Below are positions 2,716 to 14,024 of a stretch of DNA of 15,249 nucleotides, in pieces; the stretch's first letter is position 1, and each line of letters begins with the position of its first letter. Both the position numbers and the translations under genes were made by a program. The DNA lies in NCBI RefSeq assembly GCF_006345805.1, contig NW_021825667.1, positions 1 to 15,249 of the forward strand, read 5' to 3'. This stretch comes from Octopus sinensis. Lineage: Eukaryota. The notes beneath the pieces were generated by a model. The model was not told the DNA's origin, searched no databases, and saw only the letters and a program-made list of their open reading frames with translations.

Positions 2716-3160
2716 TTTTTTTCTCTCTCTCTACTTGTTTCAGTCATTTGACTGTGGCCATACTGCAGCACCGCCTTTAGTCGAGCAAATCGACCCCCAG
2801 GACTTATTCTTTGGAAGCCTAGTACTTATTCTACCAGTCTCTTTTGCCGAACTGCTAAGTTACGGGGACGTAAACACACCACCATCGGTTGTCAAGCGAT
2901 CTTGGAGGGACAAACACAGACACACAAACACACATATACACACACACAATATATATATAGATATATATATATATATATATATTATATACATATATACGAC
3001 GGGCTTCTTTCTGTTTCCGTCTACCAAATCCACCCACAAGGATTTGGTCGGCCCGAGGCTATAGCAGAAGACACTTGCCCAAGGTGCCACGCAGTAGGAC
3101 TGAACTCGGAACCAAGTGGTTGCTAATCAAGCTACTTACCACACAGCCACTCCTACGCCT
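2716..3160 (-). mobile_element. OK-like SINE, full length
   Basis: Colinear with 511-935. Confidence 0.9.
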
Positions 3161-3317
3161 ATATTTTTTTAATTAAATTTATTTTAACATTTATTAATTT
3201 AATCTGAGTATACATGTTTGTTTCCTTCTAACAAAAGTTAATTTTGATTTAAGGTTTCTTTCGATTTTACATAATAGGATTTTTAAATCGTAATTTTAAA
3301 TTTTTTGCATATCTTAT

Positions 3318-3731
3318 GCAGGTGTGGCTGTGTGGTAAGTAGCTTCCTAACCAACCACATGGTTCCGGGTTCAGTCCCACTGCGTGGCACCTTGGGCAAG
3401 TGTCTTCTGCTATAGCCCCGGGCCGACCAAAGCCTTGTGAGTGGATTTGGTAGACGGAAACTGAAAGAAGCCTGTCGTATATATGTATTATATATATGTG
3501 TGTGTATGTATTTGTGTGTCTTGTGTTTGTCCCCCTAGCATTGCTTGACAACCGATGCTGGTGTGTTTATGTCCCCGTTACTTAGCGGTTCGGCAAAAAG
3601 AGACCGATAAAATAAGTACTGGGCTTACAAAAAAGAATAAGTCCCGGGGTCGATTTGCTCGACTAAAAAAGGCGGGTGCTCCAGCATGGCCGCAGTCAAA
3701 TGACTGAAACAAGTAAAAGAGTAAAAGAGTA
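3318..3731 (+). mobile_element. OK-like SINE, near full length
   Basis: GCAGGTGTGGCTGTGTGGTAAG...GGTTCAGTCCC... through the GAAACAAGTAAAAGAGTAAAAGAG tail. Confidence 0.9.
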
Positions 3732-3800
3732 TCACCGGTTCTTCAAAGGGGCCGTCAGTTGAAAGGATTAATGAACCGAAGCCAATTTCAAATGTGTATC

Positions 3801-3962
3801 TCATCATCATCAGATCGCCTCCGTTGTCCTGGCTGGGTTGGACGGTTCGACCGGGTTGGCACGCTGGAAGGCTGCGCCAAAAGCCAGTCTCGTTCGGCAT
3901 GGGTTTCTACGGCTGGATGCCCTTCCTAACGCCAACCACTCTGAGAGTGTAATGGATGCTTT
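3801..3962 (-). mobile_element. Family E retroposon 3' fragment
   Basis: (TCA)n tail and CTACGGCTGGATGCCCTTCCTAACGCCAACCACTC; homologous to 1987-2160. Confidence 0.7.
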
Positions 3963-3965
3963 AAA

Positions 3966-4127
3966 GAGTTCAAATTCCGCCGAGGTCGACTTTGCCTTTC
4001 ATCCTTTCGGGGTCGATAAATTAAGTACCAGTTACGCACTGGGGTCAATGTAATCGACTTAATCCCTTTGTCTGTCCTTGTTTGTCCTCTCTTTGTTTAG
4101 CCCCTTGTGGGTAGTAAAGAAATAGGT
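3966..4127 (+). mobile_element. Family B (MetaSINE-like) SINE, 5'-truncated
   Basis: Starts at the B box GAGTTCAAATTCC, contains GCCTTTCATCCTTTCGGGGTCGATAAA (resembles the Meta domain as I recall it), ends AAGAAATAGGT. Confidence 0.85.
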
Positions 4128-4204
4128 CTTCCCACAGGACCCACTAGTTTATAACTATTATTAGTATCCAAAACAGGATCAAAAATTAAAATGGACTTAG
4201 TATA

Positions 4205-5089
4205 TGTTTCTTTACTACCCACAAGGGGCTAAACATAGAGGGGACAAATAAGGACAGACAAACGGATTAAGTCGAGTACATCGACCCCCAGTGCGTAACT
4301 GGTACTTATTTAATCGACCCCGAAAGGATGAAAGGCAAAGTCGACCTCGGCGGAATTTGAACTCAGAACGTAGCGGCAGACAAAATACCTATTTCTTTAC
4401 TACCCACAAGGGGCTAAACACAGAGGGGACAAACAAGGACAGACAAACGGATTAAGTCGATTACATCGACCCCAGTGCGTAACTGGTACTTAATTTATCG
4501 ACCCCGAAAGGATGAAAGGCAAAGTCGACCTCGGCGGAATTTGAACTCAGAACGAAATGGCAGACGAAATACCTATTTCTTTACTACCCACAAGGGGCTA
4601 GACACAGAGGGGACAAACAAGGACAGACAAACGGATTAAGTCGATTGCATCGACCCAAGTATTCATCTGGTACTTAATTTATCGACCCCGAAAGGATGAA
4701 AGGCAAAGTCGATCTCGGCGGAATTTGAACTCAGAACGTAATGGCAGACGAAATACCTATTTCTTTACTACCCATAAGGGGCTAAACATAGAGATAACAA
4801 ACAAGGACAGACAAATGGATTATGTCGATTACATCGACCCCAGTGCGTAACTGGTACTTAATTTATCGACCCCGAAAGGATGAAAGGCAATGTCGACCTC
4901 GGCGGAATTTGAACTCAGAATGTAACGGCAGACGAAATACCTATTCCTTTACTACCCACAAGGGGCTAAACACAGAGAGGACAAACAAGGACAAACAAAC
5001 GGATTAAGTCGATTACATCGACCACAGTGCGTAACTGGTACATAATTTATCGACCCCCGAAGGGACAAAAGGCAAAGTCGACCTCGGCG
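4205..5089 (-). mobile_element. Tandem array of ~4.8 family B SINE units (184-bp period) inside one 17-bp TSD
   Basis: Units start at 4205, 4390, 4574, 4758 and 4942. Flanks are AAAATGGACTTAGTATA (4188-4204) and AAAATGGACTTCGTATA (5090-5106). Confidence 0.93.
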
Positions 5090-5402
5090 AAAATGGACTT
5101 CGTATAAGCGATCCAATATATTTATCAAGATGGCAGACAACTAAAAATATCAAAGAGACAACGTCACACTATTTAGATCGGTTTATCTTCTTCTTCCGGT
5201 GTGATAAATAATCACTGTATTCTATTTACTCCACGTTGCTAAACATCCCTCCCGTCTGCCGTATCAGTTTCCATTGTTTTAACTCTGACTTCCTATGTCT
5301 CATCCTCATTTTTATCATTTATTTCTGTTTTTGATGATATCATTCTCCATATTTCGTAAACACAATAACTGAAAACGCCTCAAATATTTCACTAAACTAT
5401 CT

Positions 5403-7784: not shown

Positions 7785-7918
7785 ATAGTATGTATATATT
7801 GAATTGAAGAATGAATGTAACCCTGATATTGAATGGATCTGATGAGCTAGCCTTATATAACTGTATTAGCTTGTAAAATGTACGAAGTACTATGTATATG
7901 TTATAAATATATATGTTA

Positions 7919-8763
7919 GTTCCTTCTCGAGTCACGCTTGGCTCATTAGGGCCGGTTTCCCGGTTTCCTTGGCGTATAGGTTCCCCACCTTGACGGGACG
8001 CCGGTCCGTCGCAGGTGAGCTGCAAGATGCAGGAGGAAAGAGTGAGAGAAAATTGTGGCAAAAGAGTCAGCAGAAGTTTCGCCATTACCTTCTGCCGGAG
8101 CCGCATGGAGCTTAGGTGTTTTCGCTCATAAACAGACACATCGTCCGGTCTGAGATTTGAACCCGCGATCCCTCGACCGCGAGTCCGCTGCTCTAACCAC
8201 TAGGCCATGTGCCTCCACAATGTTCCTTCTCGAGGCATGCCTGGCTCTTAAAGGCCGGTTTCCCGGTTCCCTTGGCGTATAGGTTCCCCACCTGGACGGG
8301 ACGCCAGTCCATCGCAGGTAAGCTGCAAGATGCAGGAGGAAAGAGTGAGAGAAAGTTGTGGCGAAAGAGTCAGCAGAAGTTTCGCCATTACCTTCTGCCG
8401 GGGCCACGTGGAACTTGGGTGTTTTGCGCATAAACACACATATCGCCTGGTCTGAGATTCGAACCCGCGATCCCTCGACCGCGAGTCCGCTGCTCTAACC
8501 ACTAGGCCATGTGCCTTCACAATGTTCCTTCTCGAGCCATGCCTGGCTCATAAGGGCCGGTTTCCCGGTTTCCTTGCCGTATAGGTTCCCCACCTGGACA
8601 GGACGCCGGTCCGTCGCAGGTGAGATGCAAGATGCAGGAAGAAAGAGTGAGAGAAAGTTGTGGCTAAAGAGTCAGCAGAAGTTTCGCCATTACCTTCTGC
8701 CGGAGCAGCGTGGAGCTGAGGTTTTTTTTCGCTCATGAACACACACATCGTCCGGTCAGATTC
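7919..8763 (-). mobile_element. Head-to-tail trimer of an OR2-like tRNA-derived SINE (~302-bp period)
   Basis: Units start at 7919, 8222 and 8524. Head is TGTGGAGGCACATGGCCTAGTGGTTAGAGCAGCGGACTCGCGG...GGTTC(A/G)AATC; has a V-SINE-like CCTGCGACGGACCGGCGTCCCGTC segment. The third unit is 5'-truncated in the B box. Confidence 0.88.
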
Positions 8764-12752: not shown

Positions 12753-12983
12753 GGCGGCGAGCTGGTAGAAACGTTAGCACGTCGGGCGAAATGCGTAGCC
12801 GTATTTCGTCTGCCGTTGCCTTCTGAGTTCAAATTCCGCCGAGGTCGACTTTGCCTTTCATTCTTTCGGGGTCGATTAAATAAGTACCAGTTACGCGCTG
12901 GGGTCGATATAATCGACTTAATCCGTTTGTCTGTCCCTGTTTGTCCTCTCTGTGTTTAGCCCCTTGTGGGTAATAAAGAAATA
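12753..12983 (+). mobile_element. Family B SINE, full-length monomer
   Basis: GGCGGCGAGCTGGTAGAAACGTTAGCAC (A-box-like), GAGTTCAAATTCC (B box), tail ...AAAGAAATA. Confidence 0.9.
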
Positions 12984-13081
12984 GGTTCTTGGCAAAGGAA
13001 TTCGGAAAAATCATCGATTAGAAAAAAAAAATTTTAACCAGATTCCGGGTTCAGTCCCACTGCATGGCACCTTCTACTATA

Positions 13082-13490
13082 TATTTCTTTACTACCCACA
13101 AGGGGCTAAACATAGAGGGGACAAACAAAGGGATTAAGTCGATTATATCGACCCCAGTGCGTAACTGGTACTTAATTTATCGACTCCGAAAGGATGAAAG
13201 ACAAAGACGACCTCGGCGGAATTTGAACCCAGAACACGTGACAGCAGACGAAATACCTATTTCTTTATTGCCCACAAGGGGCTAAACACAGAGAGGACAA
13301 ACAAGGACAGACAAAGGGATTAAGTCGATTACATCGATCCCAGTGCGTAACTGGTACTTAATTTATCGACCCCGAAAGGATGAAAGGCAAAGTCGACCTC
13401 GGCGGAATTTGAACCCAGAACACGTGACAGCAGACGAAATACGGCTACGCATTTCACCCCGCGTGCTAACGATTCTGCCAGCTCGCCGCC
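13082..13490 (-). mobile_element. Family B SINE dimer (full-length unit plus headless unit) with TSD
   Basis: Units 13082-13257 and 13258-13490; CCTTCTACTATA at 13070-13081 and 13489-13500. Confidence 0.92.
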
Positions 13491-13814: not shown

Positions 13815-14024
13815 ATCTTTTCTACTCTAGGCACAAGGCCCGAAATTTTGGGGGGATGGGGCCAGTCGATTAGATCGACCCCAGTATGCAACTGGCACTT
13901 TATTTATCGACCTTGAAAGAATGAAAAGCCAAGTTGACCTCGGCGGAATTTGAACTCAGAACGTAAAGACAAACGAAATACCGCTAAGCATTTCGCCCGG
14001 TGTGCTAACGTTTCTGTGAAGCTC

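Follow-up and report, generated by a model that had tools for sequence, protein, structure and literature searches.

How does a short interspersed element (SINE) come to stand in tandem? The question is raised by positions 4188..5106 of a 15,249-nt stretch of the Octopus sinensis genome (the whole of which is called the window below), where five head-to-tail SINE units lie inside a single pair of target site duplications (TSDs). The origin of SINE multimers is an open question more generally: in rodents, up to half of the B2 and Dip copies are found in multimers of up to eight units, and the authors, in the sections of their paper available to us, leave the origin of B2 dimers open and cannot separate insertion into the tail of another copy from copying of a dimer (PMC8466645); studies of reptiles and a clam, again as far as the available sections go, fall back on DNA recombination (PMC10702118, PMC11481361).

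Positions 4207-5089 form a tandem repeat with a period of 184, 4.8 copies and 92% matches, bounded by one TSD pair (AAAATGGACTTAGTATA at 4188-4204 and AAAATGGACTTCGTATA at 5090-5106) that is identical at 16 of 17 positions; in a control for chance, none of 2,000 random 30-mers gave 17 nt with one mismatch, the best being 14. The first-pass annotation, which had described about 4.8 headless 184-bp units in a single 17-bp TSD, was thus right about the basic structure. With the full-length monomer of the window (12753-12986, 234 nt) as the coordinate reference, the SINE lies on the minus strand, four of the units begin at position 49, and the A box is absent from all of them; the B box is mostly absent as well from the 5′-most unit, which starts at about position 82. 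Read in the sense of the SINE, the joint is GAAATAG/GTATTT in all four cases (Table 1 and 4572/4573, 4756/4757 and 4940/4941), in agreement with the claim that all units are joined at the same position, and by direct reading it is self-complementary (GAAATA-GG-TATTTC). The statement that the sense strand holds no T4 run is correct for the family majority and incorrect for the array, which has two (plus-strand 4382-4385 and 5067-5070), both produced by C>T changes that are rare in the family.

Table 1. Features discussed in the text; coordinates refer to the window unless a locus is named, and monomer positions refer to the 234-nt reference.
Feature	Coordinates	Strand	Remarks
TSD copy, SINE 3′ end	4188..4204	+	16/17 identity to 5090-5106; chance control
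3′-most unit	4205..4388	-	monomer 49-231; LINE-like tail at end
Tail-to-position-49 joint	4381..4398	-	one of four; contains TATTT
Fourth unit	4389..4572	-	2 differences only from family majority
Middle unit	4573..4756	-	dispersed lineage, ATGAATA at monomer 139-145 (window 4659-4666)
Second unit	4757..4940	-	monomer 49-232
5′-most unit	4941..5089	-	truncated at monomer position ~82-85
TSD copy, SINE 5′ end	5090..5106	+	boundary spanned by X1 and X6 contigs
5′-truncated copy of the array's family	3966..4127	+	tail-to-tail with array
Full-length monomer	12753..12986	+	tRNA-like head, A and B boxes
Dimer	13082..13490	-	one TSD around both units; rare-lineage monomer with foreign stretch and joint inside
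Sister-family copy	13815..14015	-	shares positions 15-166, different tail; type often last in arrays
Near full-length LINE	L121:5365-9015	-	endonuclease (just under Pfam cut-off), RT (RVT_1), zf-RVT

That the array might be an assembly artefact is countered at its right boundary, which is spanned by short-read contigs of run X1 (5040-5231) and run X6 (5043-5400). Organisms A and C both have this boundary in their contigs, the latter with 12 differences and 4 gaps in 358 bases, so the site was occupied before their split. Read support concerns the right boundary only: the left flank (4131-4184) is without contig cover in X1, X2 and X6 and patchy in X8, which proves nothing, and the raw reads of X23 and X24, sampled at ~3%, did not reach the flank. 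In the species' own assembly, the right flank has no allelic counterpart (best other match, 69%), and hence no empty site can be read there; nor did any orthologous allele come to light that was empty or shorter. Small shares of the window's words also occur in runs X16-X18, which are insect or invertebrate metatranscriptomes.

The window holds several other repeats. The truncated copy next to the array (3966-4130) lies 77 bp from array positions 4207-4290, and a transcript across the two would fold into a long hairpin; the Rfam hits to microRNA families of plants, all far below gathering scores, reflect this inverted SINE pair (3966-4290) and were rejected. An unrelated repeat forms a tandem array at 7817-8757 (2.8 copies, period 302, 90% matches), and another SINE family forms an inverted repeat of 211 nt (2476-2686 and 2732-2942, 99% complementary, 45 nt apart) whose two copies are unusually alike for neighbors.

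The family has the marks of a tRNA-derived SINE, i.e., a tRNA-like head (GGCGGCGAGCTGG...GAGTTCAAATTCC, the ends of which pair in the fold), dispersed TSD-flanked copies and a tail shared with a LINE, and transcription by Pol III is predicted. The A and B boxes of the head are labeled after the general consensus, and ARAGORN found no tRNA gene. Genome-wide, the 23-nt joint motif has 30,625 exact matches and the head, at the corresponding position, 41,414; the joint matches are spread along contig C1 (the window lies on the small contig C2138), and tail-to-body joints are present in contigs of all four organisms examined. To describe the joints, we parsed 303 elements from 136 loci and the window, dropping five loci that overlapped others as well as elements interrupted by the end of a locus and keeping 11 loci picked by the position-15 pattern out of the statistics; many of the loci were chosen around joints. 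Among 179 joints that follow a tail, 155 resume at positions 48-51 and 13 at 14-16, and bases are added or lost in almost none of 162 joints. The position-15 class has 3,137 exact matches genome-wide when its motif is taken in the form read from the loci (a guessed form gave 11). The fixed joint is therefore a family-wide trait. Unit numbers rest on 55 stretches not selected for joints, in which 37 elements are free of joints, 12 have one joint, 3 have two, 1 has three and 1 has four (i.e., 17 of 54 carry at least one). Of 99 array starts, 76 have the full head, 12 begin inside it and 11 beyond it. A TSD was identified for 33 of 64 monomers and for 28 of 55 multimers, with a median length of 16-17 nt. 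A sister family with another tail often supplies the last unit of an array, and none of 11 joints after its tail resumes at position 49; at two further loci (L074, minus strand, 3026-3600, and L037, minus strand, 3203-3855), sister-family tandems are split by pieces of flank or TSD, in a TSD-(SINE-TSD)n arrangement.

The units of a short array are scarcely more alike than units drawn at random. In arrays of up to five units, neighbors are 9.5% apart and random pairs 10.6%; 60 of 83 neighbor pairs have no rare variant in common, seven of the 83 share at least two, and allele concordance between successive units is significant at no site (phi -0.13 to 0.24, 83 pairs). In the array at 4188..5106, variants below 4% frequency are common to no pair of units, and one CpG change at 5% frequency is common to two. 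The three middle units are 3.4-11.7% apart without a common rare variant, the 3′-most unit is a distinct haplotype (64C, 125T, 128A, 200A), and the 5′-most unit is the most diverged (8 uncommon changes in ~150 nt), with unit ages that are not significantly unequal (p = 0.07-0.15). Some variants cited earlier as recurring in independent copies do recur, but they are common dimorphisms in the sampled units (125T/128A at 42-44%, 195T at 38%) and are for that reason weak evidence alone. A better marker is ATGAATA in the middle unit, which is present in 14 of the 19 loci retrieved with a looser motif, on several contigs; the units that carry it are monomers (2), first units or middle units, with varied neighbors. 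The array is a mosaic, with units from at least three lineages, and such an array cannot be made by copying one RNA round and round or by duplication in place. It should be noted that ATGAATA recurs inside one array in 5 of 12 arrays, which is explained equally well by repeated use of one RNA. Where neighbors do share variants, sharing peaks beside the joint (13 of 64 at positions 59-66, 4.4 expected) and fades by ~130, with no significance beyond position 131. A variant common to L057 and L060 was considered as the mark of a dispersed source lineage and rejected, having only two copies.

Longer arrays have another history. In L051, L064 and L065, private variants are common to the units of an array and many pairs differ by 0-3%, and these arrays are local expansions. 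L064, L065 and L028, with 7-10 or more near-identical or alternating units, are candidate young satellites.

How the joint arises is seen most directly where a new copy has landed in an old one, a process that the first-pass annotation had missed. A full head directly after positions 50-60 has 122 matches (including repeats within one locus), compared with 7 after positions 130-140 as a control, and for the position-15 class a full head after positions 16-26 has 21. In 14 of 24 distinct loci read, the resident runs to about position 62; next come a short run of A's and an entire new copy, and after the standard joint the resident body continues from position 49, so that the insert is flanked by a 13-16-nt duplication inside the resident (48 to ~62 doubled); the joint thus forms anew on each such landing. 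At 6 of the 14 loci, the resident is far older than the insert, with 73-82% identity to the reference compared with 85-93%. The dimer in the window combines a head and a last unit of one rare lineage with a foreign stretch between them, and positions 49-74 of the resident are duplicated. Outside the window, 18 of 19 loci of this rare lineage are plain monomers, and a further full-length copy lies next to the remaining one. The 19 loci L194-L212 form a young monomer lineage whose haplotype is clean and which prefers TATAT as its target; many of them have a 10-bp deletion. Visible nested insertions amount to ~0.4% of joints (122 vs. 30,625), and the clean majority therefore needs further, inferred steps.

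Age gradients along arrays point in the same direction. In 59 arrays, from which five with signs of local duplication had been left out, divergence at positions 67-136 is 3.5% in the first unit and 6.3% in the last, the last unit being older in 42 and younger in 12 (p = 4e-5). This polarity is due in part to the greater age of the 219C lineage (219C monomers 6.7%, 219T monomers 3.6%), and the array at 4188..5106 runs against it. A young head with an old last unit is what one would expect if transcription starts at the new internal head and continues across the older body. One outer TSD surrounds a whole composite at four loci (L144, L146, L148 and L158), which supports the earlier suggestion that multimers are read through and copied. 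In arrays made of a head, a B unit and a C unit, heads are 7.1% diverged compared with 15% in C monomers, TSD mismatches are 11 of 196 compared with 9 of 87, and TSDs were found in 12 of 19 compared with 5 of 19; such young heads and TSDs, which go with old last units, fit re-copying or template switching and do not fit growth in place. Head age is not significantly correlated with the age of the last or first unit (rho 0.24 and 0.23), and head-age correlation and TSD ages together fail to separate growth in place from re-copying. At L146, L148 and L153 (~1200-1750), a full copy is preceded by repeats of a 65-bp unit, which consists of positions 1-63 of the SINE head and AA, and the head(1-63)+AA joint recurs on many contigs.

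The choice of target follows the lineage of the tail. The position-49 joint is preceded by a 219T tail in 148 of 157 cases, and at free ends of this lineage GGT, which makes up 1% of genomic trinucleotides, follows in 24 of 64; 219C tails precede the position-15 joint in 10 of 13 cases, and at the free ends of this second lineage the next bases are AGA in 17 of 41 and GGT in none of 41 (p about 1e-6). This points to priming by the read-through end of the RNA, and a lineage-specific endonuclease preference could be an added contributor. Position 48 is C in about a third of heads yet in only 2 of 162 joints, so the G of the joint is likely to come from the RNA. The enzyme is likely supplied by a LINE with a SINE-like tail, to judge from the tail of the near full-length LINE at L121, which is identical to the SINE tail at 34 of 42 positions (81%). 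Its order of endonuclease, RVT_1 and zf-RVT is compatible with the L1/Tx1 group. All seven ends of L121-type LINEs that were read are followed by TATCT-like (TATC) repeats and not by GGTAT, and this lineage is therefore probably not the exact partner. At L010 (600-1660), the 3′ end of a related LINE is joined to an old SINE copy at 47/48, and further units with both joint classes follow; among 6 loci with a protein match, this is the one at which a LINE end lies at SINE 47/48.

Taken together, we think it probable that the stack was built unit by unit through insertion at 48/49 of resident copies and that composites were re-copied by read-through. Pol III would continue beyond the tail and transcribe the start of the next unit (GGUAUUU...), and the 3′ extension of the RNA would pair with the same sequence in a resident head and prime reverse transcription by the partner LINE enzyme; the family's own head would be the commonest perfect match for an RNA ending in GGUAUUU. 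Both short extensions and read-through are plausible, since the family majority lacks T4 and TATTT is a partial terminator, at which Pol III stopped in 42% of cases in transfected mammalian cells according to the part of that study available (PMC8466645). At the 5′ end, the outcome may be a full-length nested copy, whose head would start a clean transcript of head, unit and resident body, or a switch back onto homology in the resident, which would leave exactly one headless unit within the TSD of the resident. Arrays with at least six units have mostly gained their length afterwards, by local duplication of DNA. At 4188..5106, the founding event was a 5′-truncated retro-insertion, and arrival of five units in one step and growth in place appear about equally likely. 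More tentatively, and with considerable doubt, we suggest a form of RNA-guided homing, in which a read-through transcript would pair with a resident over tens to more than 100 bases, prime there and switch back to resident DNA, adding one headless unit per round inside the old TSD; the target choice of a lineage would be inherited from the sequence 3′ of its source copy, so that self-targeting would reinforce itself and could seed tens of thousands of proto-satellites.

The main rival to stepwise insertion is template switching in a single event, in which the reverse transcriptase hops between co-bound SINE RNAs, guided by the GGUAUUU overlap at the joint or by longer homology inside the units, and the product is inserted whole. 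It accounts for mosaic units, for the single TSD, for the young heads and TSDs of the head, B and C arrays and for the recurrence of a rare marker within one array; roughly half of 37 last units are of type B at 61-64 but of type C at 139-157, as it would lead one to expect, and the partial Pol III stop at TATTT makes RNAs ending there plausible. We nonetheless consider it unlikely, as it leaves unexplained both the 13-16-nt duplications around inserts in old residents and the LINE at the same SINE position in L010, leads to an age polarity only if old copies usually serve as the first template, and would have to produce joints almost without added or lost bases (n = 162), unlike end-to-end jumps. 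The dimer at 13.3 kb would in addition need two switches, the second back to the same rare lineage. Transcription through a few multimeric masters, copied whole and shortened by 5′ truncation or priming at an internal tail, would give an invariant joint and agrees with the missing T4, with composites re-copied in one TSD and with the spread over many contigs of the joint between head(1-63)+AA and a copy. It is quite improbable given the lack of concordance between successive units, the differing positions and neighbors of marked units, and a candidate sibling motif that has only 2 matches, 150 kb apart; so many sources would be needed that the question of their own origin returns.

Two further explanations, slippage or unequal exchange from one inserted copy and a circular RNA, fare worse. 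Local duplication holds for L051, L064 and L065, might apply to the seven short-array pairs that share at least two rare variants, and has been proposed for squamate and bivalve arrays in the available parts of those reports (PMC10702118, PMC11481361). A truncated monomer, however, has no repeat from which to make the joint, and the five units at 4188..5106, without a common rare variant and with a middle unit of a dispersed lineage, make it highly improbable here; for this array it is largely refuted by the lineage marker, as the first-pass annotation had proposed in denying simple local duplication. The same annotation had also offered a retrozyme-like rolling-circle process on a circular RNA, which for these units would be a headless circle of 184 nt reverse-transcribed round after round. 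The fixed and self-complementary joint and the headless array at 4188..5106 suit such a circle, and the unit length falls within the 170-400 nt of metazoan retrozymes (PMC7229834, in the part seen), but most arrays keep the head, for which a headless circle fails to account, and units differ by lineage. The hammerhead core (CTGANGA) is absent from both strands, none of the eight Rfam matches is to a ribozyme family, and fold stability is not unusual for the monomer (z = -1.22) or for the joint region (z = +0.30); we regard this as the least credible explanation.

Among known systems, and judging from the parts of each source at hand, blood clam arrays and squamate sSats appear closest in shape and crocodilian SINEU/Tx1-Mar closest in mechanism. 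In the clam Scapharca broughtonii, TSD1-(SINE)n-TSD1 arrays of 4-15 units, for which unequal recombination was suggested, likewise have one TSD pair, a first SINE with a full head and later units cut at the same head position (PMC11481361, in part). First and middle units there also lose the 3′ tail, whereas here every unit keeps it; arrays make up ~3% of copies, compared with joints in about a third of the elements in our stretches not selected for joints; and mosaic units and nested insertions at the joint are found here. Squamate sSat1-3 share tandem units shorter than the SINE, a longer terminal unit and the tendency of long arrays to be homogeneous and short ones variable, but are described, in the passages available, as subtelomeric, mainly due to unequal recombination and without true dimeric SINEs (PMC10702118), whereas arrays here are short, dispersed, TSD-bound and joined at a fixed position. 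As in sSats, the units at 4188..5106 derive from part of a SINE; of the at least four homogenized middle monomers that define sSats, this array has three middle units, while L064 and L065 have the full number. In crocodilians, SINEU and a Tx1 LINE share a target in another repeat, tandems arise by sequential insertion, and co-transcription with the target can strengthen targeting; there the target is a Mariner transposon and not the SINE itself, and each tandem copy is full-length and separated from the next by a TSD (PMC4494074, in the portion available). Rodent multimers, in the same limited view, consist of full-length units with A-tail joints and are driven by L1 (PMC8466645), in contrast to the headless units and internal head joint found here. 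Metazoan non-LTR retrozymes resemble the present arrays in their short tandem units of similar length and differ in that the octopus units lack a hammerhead, belong to an element with a tRNA-like head and are mosaic (PMC7229834, in part). Two cephalopod repeat surveys, in the main text of one (PMC13282606) and selected passages of the other (PMC8967140), make no mention of such arrays; three further cephalopod or SINE papers gave no family name for this SINE in the parts available (PMC4824008, PMC5804259, PMC5786205); and a literature search, the scope of which excluded most subscription journals and repeat databases, returned no report of a SINE with its own head as target.

This family, which offers over 30,000 identical joints, two classes of joint that go with two tail lineages, nested intermediates and lineage markers, makes the origin of SINE multimers testable at scale. 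SINEs constitute 11.6% of the Octopus vulgaris genome (PMC13282606), and arrays that mix units of different ages would distort repeat landscapes where SINEs exceed a tenth of the DNA. If the 3′ extension of the RNA does steer integration, the family would be a natural example of a LINE enzyme whose integration site is chosen by RNA. The link from SINE to tandem repeat proposed at the outset is borne out, and self-insertion followed by re-copying would lead directly from a mobile element to tandem repeats.
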